Shown: positions 2 to 9,997, counted from the stretch's first letter. The stretch is DNA of 10,119 bases from Desulfurococcaceae archaeon (GCA_038888155.1 JAWAJB010000039.1:1-10119); one strand, 5' to 3'. Notes: generated by a model not told the origin, from the letters alone. Translations and numbers: made by a program.

Positions 2-232
<231 letters not shown>

Positions 233-279: not shown

Positions 280-367
280 GCGGGGGTGCCCGAGCCAGGT
301 CGAAGGGGTCGGGCTGAGGCCCCGATGGCGTAGGCCTGCGTGGGTTCAAATCCCACCCCCCGCACCA
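280..367 (+). tRNA. tRNA-Leu (anticodon GAG), intronless, CCA encoded
   Basis: Acceptor stem GCGGGGG (280-286)/CCCCCGC (357-363), discriminator A364, CCA 365-367. Anticodon stem TCGGG/CCCGA with loop CTGAGGC (GAG at 316-318), long variable arm, T arm GTGGG-TTCAAAT-CCCAC. Confidence 0.97.
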
Positions 368-1317
368 ATGCCTTTCTAAACCTCTATGAGATTGTATCTA
401 CCTATCGGCCTAGACTTCCTGGTCTTCGTCTAGGTGTCATATAACTCCTTGCTGAGGTGTGAAGACATCATCTACTTTCCCTCTGCTTCTTTATTCTGAG
501 ATTTTGTCACAGCTATTGCCCATATCTAATTGCCTGATATATCCATACGTCTCTTACTGGAGAGTCTGAACACTTTGAGAGGTTCTCGATGAAGTCTCAT
601 ACCCTGACGATTCAGTTACTCTAACTACTTCTCCTAGAATAATGCCCGAGTTAATTAGACCACATTATTGTATGTTGTGCCATTAAAATAAGAAAGGACT
701 CTTAGCGTACATGACCAAAGCTACCCTAAAGTTGATAGCTTTAGGCTCTGGTATTGATACCGTCGAGCTGTACAAAGCCTCTGCTTGTGGGCTTAAAGCA
801 TTACCACTAGCTTTAGGAGAGTAGGCTTATCGGAGTCTGAAGCCTTTTACCAACAGTACTTTCCCTGAACCTAGTTTCCAGGTCTATCCCATTGAGAGTT
901 GATCTACTCAAAGAATATCAAAGATTACTCCACTAAGTTCCAGAAACTCTTTTACCCTACTTAGCTCTACTGCGTCGGATCTCTCCCGGACAATGTTCTT
1001 AGACTCTCTGAGCGCAAAGAGCCTCCAGCTATAGCAAGAGCTCTCCAGATACTGGTTATCGAGAAGTCCAATAAATTGTAGGATCTTGGGAGAGCGACAA
1101 TGCATGTCAGGACATGGCGGGCGGCCACGATTAACTTATTCCTTTTCATAGCATGGGATCCGCAGATGATCATTAAGCTGACGATATACCGCATCGTGTG
1201 TATAGTCACGAAAAGCAACTAATACATATGCTAACGTGATACTGCTAACTAATGGTATCACAGTTTAGGATGACCCCTAACTTAACTCACTCATAAGTCC
1301 TCGCATTTAAGACGTTG

Positions 1318-1346
1318 CCAAATCTGTTAAGGTATACAGATTTAAG
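1318..1346 (+). promoter_or_regulatory. Putative operator plus TATA-like box upstream of the TRAP operon
   Basis: CCAAATCTGTTAAGGTAT (1318-1335) matches 5252-5269 at 15/18. It overlaps the inverted repeat AAATCTGT-N8-ACAGATTT (1320-1343). TTTAAG at 1341-1346 lies about 35 nt before the start codon. Confidence 0.55.
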
Positions 1347-1378
1347 TGAGAATGCCCTACCTCACTCAGTGAGTAAGT

Positions 1379-2512
1379 TTGCCGATTACCACGCGTGTCA
1401 TAACAGTCATAGCAATCGTTGTAGTAGCTACAGCGCTTACATACTTGGCATTAACTTCCCTAACACCTCCTACAAATGTAACTTCACTTACAACGACTTC
1501 GGCTACAGCCTCGGTCTCATCACCGACAACCCCTACAATATCACAAATACAACTCAGGTGGGGAACCGCATCTGCGGGAACTACTTCTTACCAAGTGCTT
1601 GGACTGATAGCGGATCTCGTAAGTAAGTACTTGCCCGGATATGAAATAATTGTCATGCCAACAGCTTCGTCCACGGCAAGTACAAAGCTCTACGCTAATG
1701 AAGAGCTGGACGGATGCTACGCTGGTAATGCCATAATGTACGAAATACATACAGGCACCGGGAGATTTGCGGGGTTTGTTCCGAAAAGATTACCAGTTCA
1801 CACATTTTGGGCGTATGAACATGAGGTAACAATAGCTATTCTCCGAGAGAATTTAGGAAGATACAAATGCTGGAGTAGTCTTAATGGTAGTAAGGTATTT
1901 CTTGGCAAATCTGACTGGGATATGCATGTAGCTCTAAGAGCAGCTCTTGAAGCGCTTGGCATCAAAGTCGAGCATGTAGAACTTGAAACAAGTATGGTTG
2001 CCGATGCCCTTCAGAGGGGTATCATAGTCGCGACCATGATTCCTACAACATCAGGTGTGACAACGTCACCGTGGGTTAAGGAGCTTGAACTGGCAGTACC
2101 TTTGGCCATACTTAACCCATGCCCAAAAGAAAAAGAACTTCTGAAAGTAAAAGCTAAAGAAATCGGTGTGTTTGCCTATGCCGAGGATTATGCGGATCCA
2201 AAGAATATCTTTGTTACGAACGTCATGCTAAGTGCAGGAGACAAAATGTCTGGTATAAAGGTTATATACGGCTTTCATACTGGACCTGAGCTCCCTGAGG
2301 AAGTAGTGTACAGAATACTCAAAGTCCTTTATGAGCACTCCGATGAGCTTGTAAAGATGTATAGTGGTTTCGCTTTGCTTAAGGAGAAATTCGCCGAATT
2401 TCAGGCTGAGTGCATCGATTCTCTCCCAATGGTCCCAGTGCATCCTGGGTTAGCAAGGTTCCTGAAGGAAAGAGGAGTATGGAGAAGTGAGTGGAAGATT
2501 GCGGAAGGTTAG
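1379..2512 (+). CDS. TAXI-family TRAP transporter solute-binding protein, N-terminally membrane anchored
   Basis: N-terminal hydrophobic helix and Thr/Ser/Pro linker, then WGTASAGTTSY and PTASSTAS (TAXI GTxxxGGxY / TxGS-like motifs), LPEEVVYRILK and C-terminal VPVHPGLARFLKE. Directly followed by a fused TRAP permease. TTG start. Confidence 0.9.
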   Translation: MPITTRVITVIAIVVVATALTYLALTSLTPPTNVTSLTTTSATASVSSPTTPTISQIQLRWGTASAGTTSYQVLGLIADLVSKYLPGYEIIVMPTASSTASTKLYANEELDGCYAGNAIMYEIHTGTGRFAGFVPKRLPVHTFWAYEHEVTIAILRENLGRYKCWSSLNGSKVFLGKSDWDMHVALRAALEALGIKVEHVELETSMVADALQRGIIVATMIPTTSGVTTSPWVKELELAVPLAILNPCPKEKELLKVKAKEIGVFAYAEDYADPKNIFVTNVMLSAGDKMSGIKVIYGFHTGPELPEEVVYRILKVLYEHSDELVKMYSGFALLKEKFAEFQAECIDSLPMVPVHPGLARFLKERGVWRSEWKIAEG

Positions 2513-4480
2513 GTGGAAATAAGATTGATGAAAATATCGTTAGCGATCTTCATTAAAAAAATTATTTTTTTAGTTTATGCTTTTATGATCCTTGCGTACT
2601 TTGTAACAGGATGGGGGGGTTCATTAAAATTCGCGGTTGTAATGCTTCCATTCTCAGCAATTATATGGGTTATTGATTCTCTTTATAAAGGAGGGTCAAT
2701 AATTCCTAGAATAAAGAATAAAATAATAAATCGATGTATTGGAATAGTAATCATTCTGCTATCTGTCGTTGCTGGGCTTTACCTAGATAGAGAGTTCTGG
2801 GAACTAGTAACGAAGAGGTCCGGATCACCCGCACACGTAGATCTTCTGTTCGGGGGAGTACTGATCTTCATAATATTGCTTCATGGAGCTATAAAATACC
2901 CTGTGATATTTGCCATAGTGATATTTTTCATGCTGAATGCTCTGTTCGGTAAGTACTTCCCTGGCATACTACAAAACCCTGGGATAGGTTACAATAGGCT
3001 CTTATCAGCTCTTAGTGTTGACTTCTATACAGGTATATTTGAGTCACTAACACAAATAGGACTCACATACGTAAGTGCTTTTATGTTGTTTGCTGGTGTG
3101 ATTAAAGAAATGGGACTTGTTAACTCTATAATAAATATAGCGCTAACAAAAATAAGAAAGTCGCAGTATATACCCTTACTAAATGCGATCGTGGGAGTCC
3201 CTGTAGGAATGGTTGTAGGTAGCGCTGCGGCTGGGACTGCCGCTGTAGGCTCTCTCACGATTCCCCTAGTTAACAGAATCGGTATTCCACTGACGCAAGC
3301 AGCCGCCTTAGCGGCGGCTGTTGGTATAGGAGCTTTGCTCATGCCTCCCATCATGAGTGCGATCGCTTTCTTAATGGCAGATGCTCTTGGCGTCTCCTAT
3401 TTCGAAGTAGTAGTACGTGGATTCGTACCAGCATTGGTATACTTCGCCGGCGTGGGAACATCAATTTACTATATAACGAGAAGGCATGTAGCTACTCCAA
3501 ACACAAATAAGGTAGAGGGTATTGGAACTTTAAATAACGACGTGTTCTCCCATGCTTCTATTCTAGACTACATTAACATAGCAATCTTTCTATTCGGACT
3601 GACACACTTAATAGTAACAATGGCTAGTTGGGTTTATCCACCCATAGCAGCCATAAGGGCAGCTTTCGTAGTACTGCTTATAACTTTAGTGACCCATTTT
3701 GTTTACTCAACTATGCGTGAAAGACGTGGAATACGCGAGGTTGTAAGTCATGTCGTTGGAAGACTGTCTAATGTCCTCGAATATTTCGTTTTACAGACAG
3801 TTGAGATAGTTCTGCTATTGTCCTTATTAGCAAACATCAAGGCTCTATTTACTATTACAGGTCTCTCTCATAAGGTGGGAACATCCCTAGTCAGATTAGG
3901 AGGTGAAAACTTCTATTTGATACTCATACTTTCTTATCTCTACGCATATATAGTAGGAGCAGGTGTCCCCCCGTTAGGTACGTATGTCATAATATATACG
4001 ACTGTAGTTCCAGCAATAATAAGGGTAGGGTTAGACCCTTGGGTCGCACAATTTGTAGCCTTCTTTATGAGTGTTCATGCCGAATTCGCTCCTCCAGTAT
4101 CAGTGGCCGCCGCAACGGCGTCAAAGATAAGTAAAGCTCCTTATCTGTCGGTTCTCAAGGAATTAGTTAAAATGGGAATAGCCTTACTAGTCCTAATTTT
4201 CATAACCCCCCTAAGACCTGAGTTAGTAACGTCTCCAGGATTACAGCAGTTACAGACTGGGTTAGAAATAGTTCTAGGCATTGTCGGTCTGGAGACTGCT
4301 CTTTACGGGATATTATACCCCAGAAGACTTCTTGACATATTTCTTAGATTGTTGTTAGCGGCAAGCTCAGTGCTATCTTTTCTAGCTGGAGGGGTGCTTC
4401 GACTCTTGTGCTTAGGATTTACCCTACTATTAACGGCATACGCTTTCTACGCTTCTACTCGTTTTAGCCGTATACGGTAA
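2513..4480 (+). CDS. TRAP transporter fused permease (DctQ-DctM, 4TM/12TM fusion type)
   Basis: 655-aa polytopic membrane protein with GMVVGSAAAGTAAVGSLTIP, GALLMPPIMSAIAFLMAD, GAGVPP and FAPPVSVAAATASKI, all fused DctM motifs. The start could alternatively be TTG 2525 or ATG 2528 after AGGTGG (2511-2516). Confidence 0.92.
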   Translation: MEIRLMKISLAIFIKKIIFLVYAFMILAYFVTGWGGSLKFAVVMLPFSAIIWVIDSLYKGGSIIPRIKNKIINRCIGIVIILLSVVAGLYLDREFWELVTKRSGSPAHVDLLFGGVLIFIILLHGAIKYPVIFAIVIFFMLNALFGKYFPGILQNPGIGYNRLLSALSVDFYTGIFESLTQIGLTYVSAFMLFAGVIKEMGLVNSIINIALTKIRKSQYIPLLNAIVGVPVGMVVGSAAAGTAAVGSLTIPLVNRIGIPLTQAAALAAAVGIGALLMPPIMSAIAFLMADALGVSYFEVVVRGFVPALVYFAGVGTSIYYITRRHVATPNTNKVEGIGTLNNDVFSHASILDYINIAIFLFGLTHLIVTMASWVYPPIAAIRAAFVVLLITLVTHFVYSTMRERRGIREVVSHVVGRLSNVLEYFVLQTVEIVLLLSLLANIKALFTITGLSHKVGTSLVRLGGENFYLILILSYLYAYIVGAGVPPLGTYVIIYTTVVPAIIRVGLDPWVAQFVAFFMSVHAEFAPPVSVAAATASKISKAPYLSVLKELVKMGIALLVLIFITPLRPELVTSPGLQQLQTGLEIVLGIVGLETALYGILYPRRLLDIFLRLLLAASSVLSFLAGGVLRLLCLGFTLLLTAYAFYASTRFSRIR

Positions 4481-5183
4481 GGTATTCTTTAACAACCTTT
4501 TTAAGCGCTTTTCTCAGATGCTCAAGAATGGCCGCTTTAGATATATTGAACGTTCGTGAAAGATCTTCGAGCGAACATCTTTTAGGCCACTCAAAATACC
4601 CCCTGATATAGGCTTCCCAGAGAATGCGGTGCTCTAGTGTAGTAAGACCCTCGTGATGAATCATCTCCCAGTTACTTCCAGGGGCACTTTTCTTGTTTAA
4701 GATGGAATTCGCGTGATGACGTCTCAGGATTGAGGGTTTCAAGCTAAGCTTCACAGAAACTGTCTCCTCGCCTAATAACAGGGCGTTTTTCTTAATATTG
4801 CTGACTAGAGCATCTCTAGTATGACATGGCATTACCACCATGAAATGCTTGTTGCCAGACACGTCATGGTATATAATGTTAGGTTTGGGAAGACCGAGCT
4901 CCATAAGGGCCTTCTGAATTCCAAAACTAAGTTTTCGCATATAGAAAACTGAAAGGTCTTTACATAGAGGGGTTAACTCCTTAACAAAGCTAATCGAGCT
5001 AGCTATGTCAACTATAGCGCCAACTAATTCACCATCATTTACGGGAAATACTAGCAAGCCTACTGTATCACCCCCACTAAGATAAAAATGCGTAAGGACA
5101 CTAGGATATGATATGTGTTTACTTAAGATAGAGATGAAGTCATTAGCGTGACGGACTCTAACGTGAGCTACGCAGTATGACAC
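4464..5183 (-). CDS. Bacterio-opsin-activator-like (HTH_10) transcriptional regulator
   Basis: C-terminal LTTLEHRILWEAYIRGYFEWPKRCSLEDLSRTFNISKAAILEHLRKALKKV fits the HTH_10 pattern LTxxxxxxLxxAxxxGYFxxPR...HLRKA. GTG start with GGGGG upstream. Divergent from the lyase operon. Confidence 0.9.
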   Translation of the reverse strand: MSYCVAHVRVRHANDFISILSKHISYPSVLTHFYLSGGDTVGLLVFPVNDGELVGAIVDIASSISFVKELTPLCKDLSVFYMRKLSFGIQKALMELGLPKPNIIYHDVSGNKHFMVVMPCHTRDALVSNIKKNALLLGEETVSVKLSLKPSILRRHHANSILNKKSAPGSNWEMIHHEGLTTLEHRILWEAYIRGYFEWPKRCSLEDLSRTFNISKAAILEHLRKALKKVVKEYLTVYG

Positions 5184-5240
5184 TTTCTAATTCCCCCATT
5201 GTGTGAATGAACAATAACGCTTAAAAATACCACTTCAGTA

Positions 5241-5279
5241 AACATGGTTTCCCAAACATGTTAAGGCATTGATTAAAAT
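5241..5279 (+). promoter_or_regulatory. Ara-box-like palindrome AACATGTT with TATA-like box upstream of the lyase/hydratase operon
   Basis: Perfect palindrome AACATGTT at 5255-5262, 10 nt spacer, then TTAAAA at 5273-5278. A second near copy AACATGGT is at 5241-5248. SD GAGGTGAT at 5303-5310. Confidence 0.6.
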
Positions 5280-5314
5280 GTTCTACTATCGATTGCAAAG
5301 CTGAGGTGATAATA

Positions 5315-6280
5315 GTGTTAACATCTGGAGCTAAAGCCTTTCGAAGGTTACTTGAGAAGGACGGATCGATAGTTAGACCTTGTGTGTTTGATTCCCTCTC
5401 TGCTATAATTGCCGAGAGAGTAGGATTTGAAATAGTTGGAACCACCGGTTATGGTATAGCGGCCGTCCTGATAGGTCAGCCAGACATAGGTCTAGTTAGC
5501 TTTGGTGAAATGCTCGAAAGGGTGAGAACCATAATAAACTCTGTTAAGATTCCTGTGGACGTAGACGCTGATACAGGTTATGGAAATCCGATCAACACTT
5601 ATTGGACAGTTCTAAACTTTGCTAGAATTGGGGCCGCTGGAGTGAGGATTGAAGACCAAGTATGGCCTAAGAAATGCGGACATATGCTTGGTAAGAGGCT
5701 GATCTCCAAGGAAGAGATGATTCAAAAGATTAAAGCAGCCATAAGAGCCCGGAATGAGATAAACCCTGAGTTAGTGATCGGTGCCAGAACGGATGCAAGA
5801 AGTGTGGCTGGATTCGATGAAGCATTAGAGCGAGCTAAGGCATACGCAGCTGCTGGAGCTGACTACGTCTACGTTGAAGGACCACAGACTTTAGAAGAGG
5901 TAAAGAAACTTGTCAAATCAGTTCCAGTACCTTTAGCATTAAATATAATTCCAGGGGGTAGAACCCCACCGTTTCGGATAGAGGACTTAAAGAAAATTGG
6001 TGTTAAATATATATCAGTCCCCATGATAGCCCTATATGCTGCCACTAAGGCAATGTATGAAGCTCTTAAAATGTTGAAAGAAGGACATGACATAGATACC
6101 CTAAAGAATCTAGGCGTAACGTGGTGGGAGTTCGCGGAGCTTATAGGTCTCAAGAAATGGAGACAACTTGAATTAGAGCTTTTATCCCCAGAAGAGTTGA
6201 AGGAGATGTATGGAACGACTAAGCTAGATGAAATCGTAGCTAGAGAGTTCGAAGAAACGACAGCAAAGTGGAAGAAATGA
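5315..6280 (+). CDS. Isocitrate lyase/PEP mutase superfamily C-C lyase (2,3-dimethylmalate lyase / petal-death-protein / PrpB-like)
   Basis: Motifs DADTGYG, IEDQVWPKKCGH (catalytic loop, 5669-5683), ARTDAR and YAAAGAD..YVEG. The ORF track starts at GTG 5306, but that GTG lies inside the SD GAGGTGAT, so GTG 5315 is more likely. Confidence 0.9.
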   Translation: MLTSGAKAFRRLLEKDGSIVRPCVFDSLSAIIAERVGFEIVGTTGYGIAAVLIGQPDIGLVSFGEMLERVRTIINSVKIPVDVDADTGYGNPINTYWTVLNFARIGAAGVRIEDQVWPKKCGHMLGKRLISKEEMIQKIKAAIRARNEINPELVIGARTDARSVAGFDEALERAKAYAAAGADYVYVEGPQTLEEVKKLVKSVPVPLALNIIPGGRTPPFRIEDLKKIGVKYISVPMIALYAATKAMYEALKMLKEGHDIDTLKNLGVTWWEFAELIGLKKWRQLELELLSPEELKEMYGTTKLDEIVAREFEETTAKWKK

Positions 6281-7560
6281 ATGCTCAGAAACCCTGCTCC
6301 CTAACAGCAAGAATTCTTGCCCAAGCAGCTGGAAAGAATAAGGTTGAAGTAGGCGAAACCGTCATAGCGAAGGTTGATAAGGTAGTAATCCATGAAGTAA
6401 CCGGGGCCATAGTACTCGATATAATAGAAGATCTTAACATAAAGATTGTTCCGGATCCTGAGCGACTTTACGTATTCCTGGATCACTATAGCCCACCTCC
6501 ATCAATTAGGGTAGCTAATATTCATAGAAGGTTTAGACTTTTTGCCAAGAATCACAAAATTAAAAACTTCTACGATGTAGGCACAGGTGTTTGCCACCAA
6601 GTTATGGTCGAAGGTTTGGTTAAACCCGGAGAAGTGATAGTGGGAGCAGATTCTCACACTACAACTTACGGGGCCCTGGCAACTTTCGCTACTGGTGTAG
6701 GCTCCACTGAAGCAACATATGCGTTACTGACCGGGGAGCTATGGTTTAAGATACCCGAACCAATATTCATTAAGCTAACTGGCGCTTTACCTACCTACAC
6801 TAGTGGTAAAGATGTAATACTTTACATACTAAGTGTATTGGGTCAAGAAGGGGCTAACTACAAATCCCTGGAGTTCTTTGGTTCGGGACTTAGATCTTTA
6901 AGTGTTAGCGATAGGTTAGCTATAGCTAATATGAGTGTAGAATGCGGTGCCAAGAACGCTATTTTCCCTCTTGATGACATCCTTGTAGATTACCTTAAAG
7001 AGTTTGATGTTCAATTAACGCAGAGAGATGTTGAACTCCTTAAACCACTCGAGTCAGAAAACCCTGACATAACTTTAAACCTAACTACTGTAGAGCCTAT
7101 GGTAGCCAAACCGCACAACCCAGCTAATGTCGTCCCAGTAAAGCTCGTAGAGGGAGAAAAAATAGATGTAGCATTTATAGGTTCATGCACTAATGGGAGA
7201 TACGATGATCTGCTAGTAGCAGCTAGAATATTAAAGAGAGGACGTATACCTAAAGACGTGAGGCTAGTAGTAACCCCTTCGTCTAGGAGGGTGTTTATGA
7301 AAGCCCTTGAAAGAGGAGTAATGCAGATATTACTAAATGCCGGCGCTATTATAACCCCACCAGGTTGCGGGCCTTGCTTCGGTGATAACATGAATGTACT
7401 TGGGGACGATGAGGTAGCTATCTCGAGTTCTAATAGGAACTTTTTAGGTAGAATGGGTTCTCCGAAGGCGAAAATATACTTAGCTTCTCCAGCCACTGTA
7501 GCAGCTTCGGCTCTTAATGGATCTATAACTGACCCAAGAAAGTACCTTGGAGAGGGGTGA
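6277..7560 (+). CDS. Aconitase-family hydratase/isomerase large subunit (LeuC/HacA/DmdA type)
   Basis: DH, GVCHQ, GADSHTTTYGA, IGSCTNGR and PGCGPC (three [4Fe-4S] cysteines), SNRNFLGRMG and YLASPATVAASA. ATG 6277 overlaps the lyase stop (ATGA), suggesting translational coupling; the ORF track starts at 6268. Confidence 0.95.
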   Translation: MNAQKPCSLTARILAQAAGKNKVEVGETVIAKVDKVVIHEVTGAIVLDIIEDLNIKIVPDPERLYVFLDHYSPPPSIRVANIHRRFRLFAKNHKIKNFYDVGTGVCHQVMVEGLVKPGEVIVGADSHTTTYGALATFATGVGSTEATYALLTGELWFKIPEPIFIKLTGALPTYTSGKDVILYILSVLGQEGANYKSLEFFGSGLRSLSVSDRLAIANMSVECGAKNAIFPLDDILVDYLKEFDVQLTQRDVELLKPLESENPDITLNLTTVEPMVAKPHNPANVVPVKLVEGEKIDVAFIGSCTNGRYDDLLVAARILKRGRIPKDVRLVVTPSSRRVFMKALERGVMQILLNAGAIITPPGCGPCFGDNMNVLGDDEVAISSSNRNFLGRMGSPKAKIYLASPATVAASALNGSITDPRKYLGEG

Positions 7561-7564
7561 AGCC

Positions 7565-8074
7565 TTGGAGAAAGTAATAGTCGGTAAGATTCTAAAAGTT
7601 GGAAATAACGTGGATACAGATGCTATAATCCCAGCAAAGTACCTAGTCACAACCGATATGAAAGAATTGGGAAAGCATGCTTTGGAGGGTTTAGATCCAA
7701 TATTACCAAGCAAACTTAAGGATAGACCCATAATAATTGCTGGTAGAAATTTCGGTTGTGGCTCGAGCAGGGAGCACGCCGTACTGGCTCTCTTGGGTGC
7801 TGGGGTTAAAGCTGTCATCGCCGAATCCTTCGCCAGGATTTTTTACAGAAATGCTATAAATAGGGGCTTGTTAGTCATAGAGGTCCCCGGCATAAGTTCC
7901 CTAGTTTCCGATGATGATACTATAACTATAGACTTAAACAATAATAAAATAGCACTACATACTACACGTCAAATTATATGCTTTAAGCCGCTCCCTGAGG
8001 AGATTCTTGAATTACTAGAACTTGGAGGTCTGCTGGAGAAACTGAGGGTAATGTTCAAAGGTAGAGAACCTTAA
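7565..8074 (+). CDS. Aconitase-family hydratase/isomerase small subunit (LeuD/HacB/DmdB type)
   Basis: NVDTDAIIPAKYL, GRNFGCGSSREHA and ESFARIFYRNAINRGL. TTG 7565 follows SD GGGGTGA (7554-7560); the ORF track starts at 7547. Confidence 0.95.
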   Translation: MEKVIVGKILKVGNNVDTDAIIPAKYLVTTDMKELGKHALEGLDPILPSKLKDRPIIIAGRNFGCGSSREHAVLALLGAGVKAVIAESFARIFYRNAINRGLLVIEVPGISSLVSDDDTITIDLNNNKIALHTTRQIICFKPLPEEILELLELGGLLEKLRVMFKGREP

Positions 8075-8945
8075 GTAACCTCAGTTTTTGATAATACCAC
8101 ATAACCATGCAGTTAGGAAATAACAACTGAGGCTTGCCCATTAGAGTAATGCTGAATAGCATATTACGAAATACATAAAGAATTTTTGGTTTGTCTGAAT
8201 TCCGCATTTTGTTTCAGGAAAGTCCTTAAACCAGGACATTTTGAGTGATATGCGGATAGCCCGATGAATGATCTCTTAAAATTCTTTAAACCTGTTGATG
8301 CCATTACTTCGGGATCCATCAAATAAGACAGTGTCACATATCGAATAGAGTCGCTTACTGGAACCTCTGCTTAAGCTCACGATCTAACGGCATCTAAGGC
8401 TGCTAGCATCACACTTGTACTCTTCAATGTTTGTCTCACGAAGGCAGTCAGCATACATCTTTCTTCGCTTTTCTTTATACCTTTAACGCGATCAACGTTT
8501 GTAGACACTGCTTTTCTACAAAGGATTTCGGCAATTACATATTTCATAGTCATTCCCATATTTGAAACCCGGGTCCCACAGCATTGTGCTATTAAGATGG
8601 GAGAGAAGAAACTATATTTGCCGGCAGGTGTATAGAAAGTGGGATGCATATATCTTATGAGTGCGCTAACCCCTAGACCTCATGTTTGTCGGCTTTAAGC
8701 TAGAAAAAATGACAAACTACTAAACAGTAAGTGACGCTTAAAGCTATGGCATTTTTCCAGCTATTATGTAATCTATGTAATCCGTAACAGTCTCTCGCTA
8801 ACAATCTGCTCAAGGATCAGCTCTTCAAATTCTGCGACTAGCTCACCAGTTAGGGATGAACCATCAGTTTTCTCATTCGTTCTGAAACCAGAGACACCAT
8901 CATCTCTGTAATAAAACTGGTCATAGAAAACATGGGAGCGTGTGA

Positions 8946-8994
8946 CTAAGGCCCTGATTGCGAGCCCGCGTGAGTTCGAATCCCGCCCCTGTAC
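8946..8994 (+). repeat. Degenerate direct repeat of the tRNA-Leu 3' half (att-like remnant)
   Basis: CTAAGGCCCTGATTGCGAGCCCGCGTGAGTTCGAATCCCGCCCCTGTAC aligns by hand to tRNA 314-365 at about 40/52 columns (9 mismatches, 3 gaps) and keeps GTTCGAATCCC. Confidence 0.75.
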
Positions 8995-9039
8995 TCATCC
9001 CTAGCTAAGGTAAGGCTCTTTCCTAACCTTATGCTTACT

Positions 9040-9310
9040 CGGGTAATTTAATCCATTTGGTCCGAAGAACACATCATCTAAGTCCCATAGATTCTGTTGC
9101 GAGCCAGAAAGATAACGCTGGCGGAATATCCTATTATACTAGATGCGATACCTTGGAAACAAAAATGACCATCAACTTGTTCTCAAAGTGTCCAAGATAC
9201 GGGAATTCGGAAACGCCTCTGAACCCCGTTGAGGGTGGAACAAACCGGAACCTGTGTGAGGAAAATTGGGTGATGAAGCCGATCCATGTAAACCGATACA
9301 GTGCTGAACC
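9040..9310 (+). pseudogene. tnpB: Decayed TnpB (IS200/IS605-type) C-terminal fragment
   Basis: Frame +2 gives PKNTSSK (9062-9082); after a frameshift, frame +3 gives KDNAGGISYYTRC...TINLFSKCPRYG...PLN. This resembles the archaeal TnpB tail xPxNTSxxCxxCG...CxxCG...DRDxxAxxNL, but most zinc-finger cysteines and the DRD are lost. Confidence 0.6.
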
Positions 9311-9469
9311 TTTTGTCTCTCCAAGTAGCTTAGCGCCTTATGTAGCATTTTATAAGCTAGGAAGAAACCTACCACGAAAGCTCCGCACATAGCTCAGTAT
9401 GTAGTAATTATAGAGTCATGTACGCTTGAGCAATGGTATCTACACTAATAACTTGCTACCGCAAGTAGT

Positions 9470-9502
9470 AACCTCATGCTCTTCAGGGCAGGGAGGAATC
9501 GG
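9470..9502 (+). mobile_element. IS200/IS605-like right-end hairpin remnant
   Basis: AACCTCATGCTCTTCAGGGCAGGGAGGAATCGG can fold (TGCTC/GGGCA with a G-T pair, CCTC/GAGG). It resembles the recalled archaeal end motif ACCCTCGCCCTTCAGGGCGGGGAGG. Confidence 0.5.
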
Positions 9503-9565
9503 TAAAATGCGGTAGTCACGCTTTTATTTTTGGTTACCAGCAGGTAGATACTGCTTGGTGGTGGT

Positions 9566-9997
9566 ATAGGAGGTTCTAGACCTCTCAAGATAGGTGTTTA
9601 CATCCCTGGAGATTTAGCCGATGAGATATCTAAGGTCATGAGGGATGCTGGAATAGGCTCTATCTCGAGGGTAGTGCAGGAGAGTCTTAGGCTTTATCTC
9701 GCAGAGCATAGCTGGAGAACGGGTGGTGATGTCGTTGGAGCTTTAGGGATAGTATACGACCATGAAGCTAGAAATGTTGACGAAGAACTAACGGACATAC
9801 AGCATAAGTACTTAGACGTTGTTGTCTCTTCTCTACACGTGCACTTAGACCAGAGAAACTGCCTACTCGTAGTTGTAGTTAAAGGCTCTTCTAAAGCTGT
9901 TAAAGCACTCGTAGACGAAATCGAGAGAGTTGAGGGAGTTAAAGTAGTTAGATTAGCACTCATGTCTAAGCAGCCCGAGCAAGTAGAGAGTACTTGA
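9566..9997 (+). CDS. nikR: Nickel-responsive ribbon-helix-helix transcriptional regulator NikR
   Basis: YDH, IQH and LHVHLDQRNCL carry the His/His/His/Cys Ni ligands. The RHH N-terminus (RPLKIGVYIPGDLADEI) is in frame upstream of ATG 9638. The start position is uncertain; ATA 9566 is proposed. Confidence 0.88.
   Translation: MGGSRPLKIGVYIPGDLADEISKVMRDAGIGSISRVVQESLRLYLAEHSWRTGGDVVGALGIVYDHEARNVDEELTDIQHKYLDVVVSSLHVHLDQRNCLLVVVVKGSSKAVKALVDEIERVEGVKVVRLALMSKQPEQVEST

Follow-up and report, generated by a model that had tools for sequence, protein, structure and literature searches.

Contig C39 of a Desulfurococcaceae archaeon assembly (10,119 bp; "the window" below means this whole stretch) carries six genes for a TAXI-TRAP importer, an HTH_10 transcription regulator, a C-C lyase of the isocitrate lyase (ICL)/phosphoenolpyruvate (PEP)-mutase superfamily, and a two-subunit LeuC/LeuD-type hydro-lyase (Table 1). 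On balance, these genes probably form a two-operon regulon under the one HTH_10 regulator for the coenzyme A (CoA)-independent, two-step uptake and cleavage of an organic acid, most likely a small one with an uncharged substituent. The importer would bring in a substituted C4-dicarboxylate, namely a malate substituted at C2 or C3 or its cis-unsaturated (maleate-type) counterpart. The LeuCD-type iron-sulfur hydro-lyase would hydrate or isomerize the import to the 2-hydroxy acid accepted by the Cys-loop lyase, which would split the C2-C3 bond in a retro-aldol reaction to a 2-oxo acid and a short carboxylate such as acetate or propionate. The likeliest substrates would be citraconate, (R)-citramalate, 3-methylmalate, or close alkyl analogues, with pyruvate and acetate as products. 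The scheme of import, hydration or isomerization by LeuCD, and CoA-independent cleavage is well supported by gene content, conservation, a dedicated hydratase lineage, and the absence of partner genes; we infer which way the flux runs, how the steps are ordered, what the substrate is, and whether the regulator activates or represses.

Gene order and importer

Open reading frames (ORFs) for all six genes were confirmed at the coordinates in Table 1. The permease gene starts on the base right after the stop of the binding-protein gene with zero gap, and the enzyme genes overlap by 13 nt (lyase/LeuC) and 14 nt (LeuC/LeuD). The regulator gene diverges from the lyase gene across a spacer of 122 nt. 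Catalytic motifs are intact in the translations, including SCTNG and GCGPC in LeuC, GSSRE in LeuD, and DVDADTGYG, EDQ, and KKCGH in the lyase. An independent metagenome contig (L127) carries the same six genes in the same order with 89-97% protein identity; the arrangement is thus not an assembly artefact. The contig recurs in another metagenome at 95-97% identity. A first-pass annotation, made from the sequence alone, had described a TAXI-TRAP importer, an HTH_10 regulator, and a coupled lyase/LeuC/LeuD operon, and the ORFs, the family scans, and the repeated order in L127 confirm this description. Its statement that leuA, leuB, prpC, prpD, and CoA-transferase genes are missing from the window is equally correct, with zero matches to these families among the 10 ORFs of at least 80 aa and a 76-aa end fragment.

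The binding protein has an N-terminal membrane anchor followed by a Ser/Thr/Pro-rich linker. It scores 80.6 bits against TIGR02122, just below the cut-off of 84.35, and the permease scores 259.9 bits against TIGR02123, below the cut-off of 320.65. With Pfam scores above and NCBIfam subfamily scores below their cut-offs, the importer is, by family assignment, a divergent TAXI-TRAP. It is 21-24% identical to the TRAPs of other lyase loci. We dropped the attempt to deduce a ligand from the binding protein, as its best PDB match reaches only 27 bits. A paralogous TAXI-TRAP on contig C5 (49% identity) was also set aside as a clue to function, since its neighbors give no metabolic hint.

The LeuC/LeuD pair

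The pair belongs to the archaeal-type LeuC/LeuD subfamily, which covers isopropylmalate isomerase (IPMI), homoaconitase (HACN), and DmdAB. Both subunits score above the TIGR02086 and TIGR02087 cut-offs, and the three Cys cluster ligands and the GSSRE motif are present. Scores remain below the equivalog cut-offs for biosynthetic LeuCD (LEU2 TIGR02083, 440.8 versus 610.65; leuD TIGR02084, 156.6 versus 245.85), homoaconitase (NF040615, 408.4 versus 550; NF040604, 171.3 versus 230), and aconitase (NF005558, 346 versus 612). In a maximum-likelihood tree of LeuC (38 rows), the window falls in a 10-row clade with support of 99/97 that it shares with L127 and with eight modules found elsewhere in the order, and all 10 rows are linked to a lyase. 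Loci L091-L126 include 11 distinct genome places where LeuC lies beside a LeuA-like synthase, an Iso_dh-like gene, or both (eight are full operons), and all 11 of these LeuC rows fall outside the lyase-linked clade. A LeuC-like match (E <= 1e-20) was found in 20 of 61 related genomes.

The window LeuC is the sole Aconitase-family (PF00330) match in the host assembly, and tblastn of that assembly with LeuC, LeuD, the lyase, and the regulator returned no paralogue of any of them. The assembly has no match to Iso_dh (PF00180), so no LeuB, isocitrate dehydrogenase (IDH), or homoisocitrate dehydrogenase, and none to citrate synthase (PF00285) or malate synthase (PF01274). Iso_dh was found in none of five related module-bearing genomes (G006, G060, G264, G242, and G237). 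In the first four, the lyase-linked LeuC is the only one returned by the aconitase-family search, and in G237 the searches for aconitase-family, Iso_dh, and citrate synthase genes all came back empty. Because the pair is the sole host copy in an assembly that has neither Iso_dh nor citrate synthase, and because its clade is entirely lyase-linked, we conclude from these comparisons that LeuCD is not biosynthetic. The 10/10 lyase-linked clade and the missing Iso_dh and citrate synthase agree with the earlier claim of a stand-alone unit, CoA-independent on gene content, rather than a fragment of the leucine or methylcitrate pathway. The first-pass annotation had asked whether the host holds a separate leu operon or prpC, and the assembly contains no second LeuCD, no Iso_dh, and no citrate synthase. 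It had also named as damaging the case in which LeuCD groups with biosynthetic IPMIs and is the only host copy. Half of this applies, as the copy is single and the clade is separate; a single copy does no harm to the proposed catabolic role because the host has no LeuB.

The substrate-recognition loop of LeuD sets specificity in IPMI and homoaconitase, according to the summary of Jeyakanthan et al. (2010) given in PMC7308503. The loop reads YLVT in the window and YLT[LI] in eight other clade members. The aligned loops of Methanocaldococcus jannaschii read YLVY in IPMI and YLRT, with Arg, in homoaconitase, and four aligned fused aconitases carry LPLRSN, again with Arg. At columns where six aligned aconitases share a Gln, several Arg, and a His-Arg pair, the lyase-linked clade has IPMI-type residues. 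As aligned, the uncharged LeuD loop and the IPMI-type residues favor an uncharged substituent on the substrate. The closest solved relatives of both subunits (LeuC, 389 bits; LeuD, 170.6 bits) are those of the M. jannaschii isopropylmalate/citramalate isomerase (4nqy/4kp1, 3vba), which shares an uncharged loop (YLVY versus YLVT). Unlike this biosynthetic isomerase, the window pair sits in a lyase-linked clade from genomes without LeuB-type dehydrogenases.

The Cys-loop lyase

The PEP_mutase fold, Mg-binding Asp/Glu residues, and K(K/R)CGH loop place the lyase in the C-C lyase branch of the ICL/PEP-mutase superfamily. K122, C124, G125, H126, D85, D87, E116, and D117 are invariant or nearly so in 20 relatives. 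The lyase scores below every equivalog cut-off tried. The best of these is prpB (TIGR02317, 237.9 versus 354.4; NF008455, 204.6 versus 353), and the score for isocitrate lyase AceA is far lower (TIGR01346, 60.6 versus 275.9), with no malate synthase in the host. In order of score, its PDB matches are the petal death protein (PDP; 1zlp, 200.6 bits), a Bacillus anthracis PrpB-like protein, fungal 2,3-dimethylmalate lyase (DMML; 3fa3, 170.7 bits), and Escherichia coli PrpB (1mum, 166.6 bits). Comparisons with PDP, DMML, and PrpB are HMMER pairwise alignments to PDB chains; the trees exclude Eubacterium barkeri DmdAB/Dml, carnation PDP, and fungal DMML and oxaloacetate acetylhydrolase (OAH).

The lyase resembles PrpB in fold, Mg site, and Cys-His loop. 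It differs in three respects: I215 and Y244 occupy the positions of PrpB T212 and R241, a replacement shared with the petal death protein (pairwise and multiple alignments); TGYG stands in place of PrpB SGGG; and neither an adjacent PrpD nor a PrpC accompanies it. Within the class, archaeal lyases with the Thr/Arg pair intact adjoin PrpD genes in seven genomes (G329, G317, G072, G071, G059, G278, and G192). The scores below the prpB cut-offs, the replaced T212/R241, and the PrpD genes beside the Thr/Arg keepers together indicate that the lyase is not of the PrpB type. Carnation petal death protein, which Lu and colleagues reportedly described in 2005 as a 2-alkylmalate lyase/OAH, shares (over residues 7-291) WPKKCGHM, [ST]GY[GS], N-x-I-x-G-G-[KR]-T-P, and the Tyr at the position of PrpB R241. 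Unlike the window lyase, it comes from a plant, lacks a partner hydratase, and has GDTGGGG in place of ADTGYG.

A FastTree phylogeny splits the lyases into two lineages, clade A, with the window, and clade B. We take PrpB F186, L234, and P236 to hold the C2 methyl and T212 and R241 to bind the distal carboxylate of succinate, the leaving group. If the latter role holds, both clades would release a small acid such as acetate or propionate. The presumed C2-substituent pocket is Y189/S237/P239 in the window, F/I/P in clade B, and F/[LI]/P in DMML, PrpB, and archaeal PrpB-type enzymes, so that clade B is closer to DMML there. If the pocket role holds too, enzymes with F/[LI]/P, clade B included, would yield pyruvate, and the Y/S/P pocket of clade A is, judged by its residues, larger and more polar.

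A mosaic operon

A search for lyase homologues covered 351 genomes of the class and gave a match at E <= 1e-30 in 142; surroundings of homologues were fetched, the genes clustered, and the families scanned. Clade B comprises 10 rows (support 0.94), eight of which consist of HTH_10, lyase, LeuC, LeuD, and an SSF-family symporter. The remaining two are L216, with HTH_10, lyase, and SSF only, and L220, a lyase beside an ABC-transporter gene. The co-conservation called for by the first-pass annotation is thus seen in nine further genomes of the order with the importer swapped, although the ninth locus (L216) lacks LeuCD. Six SSF-type modules also contain a conserved protein of 111-142 aa with no family match (L120 8701-9036, L217 6982-7365, and four more loci), with the N-terminal motif [YF]C[HYR]PD[AV]P and the C-terminal end PFPRGSC. 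The window has no convincing counterpart of this protein (best E 0.005 over 30 aa, opposite strand).

In clade A, the combination of TAXI-TRAP, HTH_10, and LeuCD is found only in the window and L127. Their nearest relatives (support 0.99; 73-74% lyase identity) are L207 and L208, which have TAXI-TRAP and HTH_10 and no hydratase. Five loci combine TAXI-TRAP with aconitase and IDH (L209, L128, L129, L210, and L211), and L010 and L212-L214 contain aconitase, IDH, and lyase only. These operon-like clusters with clade-A lyases come from genomes G345, G167, G166, G190, G056, and G191. Their aconitases pass equivalog cut-offs (AcnA, 1302 versus 945 bits; PRK07229 type, 924 versus 612), and the two IDHs that were scored reach 583 and 601 bits versus the NADP-IDH cut-off of 484. 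No citrate synthase and no malate synthase were found in the four aconitase-IDH-lyase genomes searched (0/5 in each search, the fifth genome being G237 and the host, respectively; G166 and G191 lay outside the search). As a separate observation, a fusion of an RraA-like domain (aldolase/oxaloacetate-decarboxylase fold) with an AsnC/Lrp-type regulator lies at L210 8964-10037 (-), with homologues in L128, L129, L211, L208, and L215. It adjoins four of the five TRAP-aconitase-IDH-lyase clusters (not L209) and is also present in L208 and L215.

Because the relatives of the window lyase pair either with TRAP and HTH_10 without a hydratase or with aconitase and NADP-IDH, the window operon is a mosaic, in which a regulator-lyase core of the TRAP-only type has been joined to LeuCD of a lineage that otherwise partners clade B. 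The window regulator is 42% and 37% identical to the regulators of the TRAP-only loci. Outside the order, 26 genome loci have a lyase of at least 54% identity (Bathyarchaeia, Methanothrix, Thermotogota, WOR-3, Njordarchaeota, and others). Neighbors in these loci include aconitase-family genes (five), Iso_dh (three), and divergent TctCBA genes (two), and the rest are unrelated.

Regulation and transcription

The regulator has a C-terminal HTH_10 domain, and its N-terminal ~175 aa match no family. Homologues aligned near full length flank the lyase in 12 further loci, with 27-42% identity outside L127. Two operator-like sites lie in the window (Table 1), each trailed by an A/T-rich box. The exact pattern AAAYNNGTTAAGG occurs twice in the window versus 0.02 expected from shuffles, a pattern derived from these same two sites. 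Palindromes seen in the window alone were not relied on by themselves. Independent evidence comes from recurrence of the motif AAA[CT]NNGTTA(A)GG, which lies in the HTH_10-adjacent spacer of 11 of 13 HTH_10-bearing loci; the window, L127, L217, L218, and L221 have a second copy upstream of the transporter gene. It is absent from the intergenic regions of nine related loci that have no HTH_10 gene. Across the 2.42 Mb of the host genome there are 27 matches to the motif, 17 of them inside ORFs. On these patterns, we take the motif as the putative operator of the regulator and the two operons as one predicted regulon. Of the earlier labels "HTH_10 regulator" and "activator", the HTH_10 regulator stands, and activation, which the motif position just upstream of a TATA-like box would suit, is drawn from that position alone.

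The stretch was found in 13 public runs from seven studies, 12 of them hot-springs metagenomes and one a sediment metatranscriptome (X2). One contig of this RNA library spans 5329-7959, covering the lyase, LeuC, and most of LeuD, and another (1410-3233) bridges the binding protein into the permease. The gene-poor regions 677-1352 and 8113-9464 have zero depth in X2, yet they are covered by DNA runs X7 and X8. This pattern fits transcription of both operons. The shared operator-like motif and the RNA-library contigs also point to co-regulation and expression; the first-pass annotation had named as damaging the case in which the genes are neither co-conserved nor co-regulated.

Candidate substrates and alternative explanations

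The hydro-lyase and the lyase lead to different candidate substrates. On the side of LeuCD, its lineage, the uncharged loop, and the DMML-like lyase that usually partners it point to citraconate, citramalate, 3-methylmalate, or a dimethylmaleate-type acid. On the side of the lyase, the lineage of the window enzyme, with its aconitase and NADP-IDH neighbors, and the polar C2 pocket point to citrate or isocitrate. Several observations weigh against a small acid with an uncharged substituent, or against the two-operon scheme itself. The window lyase belongs to clade A and not to clade B, which usually accompanies its LeuCD lineage. The clade-A lyases fetched from the order, L207 and L208 apart, sit with AcnA- or PRK07229-type aconitases, and their active-site blocks are near-identical to those of the window, which argues for a tricarboxylate substrate. 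The Y/S/P pocket, if its presumed role holds, makes the window lyase no clean match to a pyruvate-forming enzyme. A TctCBA tricarboxylate-type transporter flanks the lyase in 2 of the 26 loci outside the order. The binding protein is so far from solved TAXI proteins that it offers no ligand clue, and the RNA contigs cannot prove single transcripts. The host assembly is suspect as well, with 2.42 Mb versus 0.9-1.5 Mb for the 16 genus mates listed and contigs spanning 36-54% GC, and the bin may hold more than one organism. It is thus unsafe to state that C39, C46, and C82 (both discussed below) share one cell. The first-pass annotation had proposed the import, hydration, and cleavage of dimethylmaleate or citraconate by analogy to DmdAB and Dml; the scheme is supported, and the substrate and the specific analogy are tentative in view of the clade-A lyase with its Y/S/P pocket.

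The most serious competitor is a tricarboxylate route, in which citrate, cis-aconitate, or isocitrate enters through the TRAP, LeuCD serves as an aconitase of two subunits, and the lyase cleaves isocitrate to glyoxylate and succinate, or citrate (as 2-(carboxymethyl)malate) to oxaloacetate and acetate. We regard it as possible and yet doubtful. The clusters of clade-A lyases (65-72% identity, near-identical active sites) with AcnA/PRK07229 aconitase and NADP-IDH, the TctCBA genes beside the lyase in L025 and L033, and the more polar Y/S/P pocket of clade A speak for it, as does the Desulfurococcus amylolyticus reconstruction, which in the part we consulted also lists an "aconitase" but no IDH (PMC6182646). 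Against these stand a LeuD loop without a basic residue and the absence of aconitase-specific residues from both LeuC and LeuD. Glyoxylate would have no obvious sink in a host without IDH or malate synthase, and the residues that we take to bind the distal carboxylate of succinate in PrpB, T212 and R241, are replaced by Ile and Tyr. G237 has TRAP, lyase, and the HTH_10 regulator and lacks an aconitase-family gene, so its lyase substrate must be available outside the cell. This gene set is a poor fit to isocitrate, and it fits citramalate, citrate, or a similar 2-substituted malate better. One bold way to reconcile the two lines would be a reaction common to both lyase clades, the cleavage of 2-substituted malates to a 2-oxo acid and acetate, with a methyl substituent in clade B and perhaps a carboxymethyl one, as in citrate, in clade A. 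Since the searched aconitase-IDH-lyase genomes have neither citrate synthase nor malate synthase, clade A could be a lyase of 2-substituted malates, independent of CoA and acyl carrier protein, that accepts citrate (2-carboxymethyl-malate) in a reaction interconverting it with oxaloacetate and acetate, and the window would have recruited the same lyase behind a LeuCD hydratase for an imported unsaturated or isomeric acid. We judge this version distinctly unlikely, more so than the tricarboxylate route. If it were true, those genomes would have in the lyase the step that their incomplete citric-acid branch lacks, whether it forms citrate or cleaves it; the clade-A lyase may supply or consume citrate or isocitrate in this otherwise orphan branch.

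Two further explanations start from genes elsewhere in the host assembly, and both appear very improbable. Contig C82 (L007 1030-5773) encodes an MmgE/PrpD-family protein (453 aa, 254.5 bits) directly downstream of a third TAXI-TRAP, a further point against the favored explanation. This enzyme could dehydrate imported 2-methylcitrate, with LeuCD forming 2-methylisocitrate and the lyase acting as PrpB in the lower half of a methylcitrate cycle, and automatic source labels indeed call the relatives "methylisocitrate lyase". The lyase, in contrast, falls below both prpB equivalog cut-offs and lacks the T212/R241 states kept by E. coli PrpB and six aligned PrpB-type archaeal lyases, two of which (G329 and G317) lie beside PrpD, and the host assembly has no gene of the citrate/methylcitrate synthase family. 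The C82 protein reaches just 70 bits against a PrpD equivalog, PrpD is rare (1/62 genomes of the host family; 1/52 of family f3, where the module occurs), and C82 has 49% GC versus 42.6% for the window contig, in a bin that may be mixed. Similarly, LeuCD could be the leucine/isoleucine isomerase of the host, or the lyase could condense a 2-oxo acid with acetate for biosynthesis. The window LeuCD is the only one in the host, a LeuA/CimA-family synthase (408 aa, no regulatory domain) is encoded on C46, and ICL-type reactions are reversible. That synthase, at 359.9 bits, is below its cut-off of 484.75 and sits in a LarA/B/C/E cluster on a contig of 36.8% GC. No Iso_dh-family dehydrogenase was found in the assembly or in the five related module genomes, the LEU2 and leuD scores are too low, and the LeuC clade stands apart from synthase-LeuCD-dehydrogenase operons. 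The linkage to importers and a dedicated regulator instead points to catabolism. Apart from this question, the C46 cluster (L008 37-8847), in which LarB, LarE, LarC, and a LarA-like, malate-racemase-like protein (240 bits versus a cut-off of 500) enclose the synthase, may be another 2-hydroxy-acid pathway.

Relation to known systems and significance

In the nicotinate fermentation of E. barkeri, DmdAB is the 2,3-dimethylmaleate hydratase and Dml the 2,3-dimethylmalate lyase. The window module is like this system in coupling a two-subunit LeuCD-type hydro-lyase to an ICL-family Cys-loop lyase with no need for CoA, and the NCBIfam subfamily matched by its LeuD is named "LeuD/DmdB family". Unlike DmdAB/Dml, the module is archaeal, has its own importer and HTH_10 regulator, and lacks nicotinate-pathway genes. 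Fungal DMML is only the third-best PDB match of its lyase, and the two differ in the C2 pocket (Y/S/P in the window versus F/I/P). Literature searches on archaeal LeuCD-lyase pathways, CoA-independent citramalate lyases, homologues of the petal death protein, and archaeal TAXI systems, with supplementary files outside their scope, returned no account of this module. Thus, the hydratase-lyase logic is known, and the dedicated archaeal LeuCD lineage, the HTH_10 regulon with a recognizable operator, and the interchangeable importers and hydratases are new.

Fermentative hyperthermophilic Thermoproteota are usually described as users of peptides and sugars with a truncated central metabolism. Pipeline labels of prpB, leuC, and leuD would hide a regulated unit for organic-acid uptake and cleavage in genomes that can make neither leucine nor methylcitrate. 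Recognition of the unit would correct a systematic misannotation, of which the "aconitase without IDH" in the part of the D. amylolyticus reconstruction consulted (PMC6182646) may be an example. For HTH_10 regulators outside haloarchaea, which are poorly understood, it also offers a candidate operator, and it adds a predicted thermostable hydratase/lyase pair that would make 2-oxo acids from substituted maleates or malates. The mosaic evolution amounts to a natural experiment on interchangeable parts, in which a regulator-lyase core is combined with TRAP or SSF importers and with no hydratase, LeuCD, or aconitase plus IDH.

Remaining features of the contig

Table 1. Coordinates of the genes and sites of contig C39 (assembly of 2.42 Mb in 134 contigs, 97.4% complete, 6.4% contaminated)
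Feature	Position	Strand	Evidence or context
TAXI-family TRAP solute-binding protein (NMT1_3)	1379-2512	+	PF16868, 70.9 bits vs cut-off 27
Fused TRAP (DctQM-type) permease	2513-4480	+	PF06808, 163.5 bits
HTH_10 transcription regulator	4464-5183	-	PF04967, 63.9 bits vs cut-off 23.1
ICL/PEP-mutase-superfamily C-C lyase, clade A	5306-6280	+	PF13714, 182.6 bits; loop WPKKCGH
LeuC-type [4Fe-4S] hydro-lyase, large subunit	6268-7560	+	TIGR02086, 498.2 bits vs cut-off 410.15
LeuD-type small subunit	7547-8074	+	TIGR02087 "LeuD/DmdB family", 182 bits vs cut-off 108.95
Operator-like site 1 (AAATCTGTTAAGG)	1320-1332	+	47-59 nt upstream of binding-protein start; within palindrome AAATCTGT-N8-ACAGATTT
Operator-like site 2 (AAACATGTTAAGG)	5254-5266	+	Regulator/lyase spacer, 40-52 nt upstream of lyase start; then TTAAAA box
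Class-III aminotransferase gene, 3' end	2-232		Contig start; family scan
tRNA-Leu(GAG)	280-367		Just upstream of module
NikR-like gene	near 9548-9997	+	Family scan

Downstream of leuD, about 1.5 kb contain no recognizable genes, and an Rfam scan of 8100-9650 gave no match. A fragment resembling the T-arm and acceptor end of a tRNA lies at about 8957-8995, ~0.9 kb 3' of leuD, and is called by neither ARAGORN nor Rfam. The tRNA-Leu, the tRNA-like fragment, and the patchy spread of the module (lyase in 3/62 genomes of the host family) hint at an integrated island. A "joint" of 367 to 8966 in DNA runs X6 and X7, first taken as a possible excision of such an island, was rejected; it is probably cross-matching of tRNA-like sequence, because one side has just 24 letters and 8957-8995 resembles a tRNA end. 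In X7, one contig skips 465 bases at 8590-9056, a deletion variant in the gene-poor stretch 3' of leuD.

Translation of the NikR-like gene from its first canonical start (ATG, 9638) would give the nickel-binding C-domain alone. In-frame codons for the ribbon-helix-helix part lie farther upstream, between a stop at 9545-9547 and that ATG. Because this part contains no ATG, GTG, or TTG start, the gene probably uses a non-canonical one.

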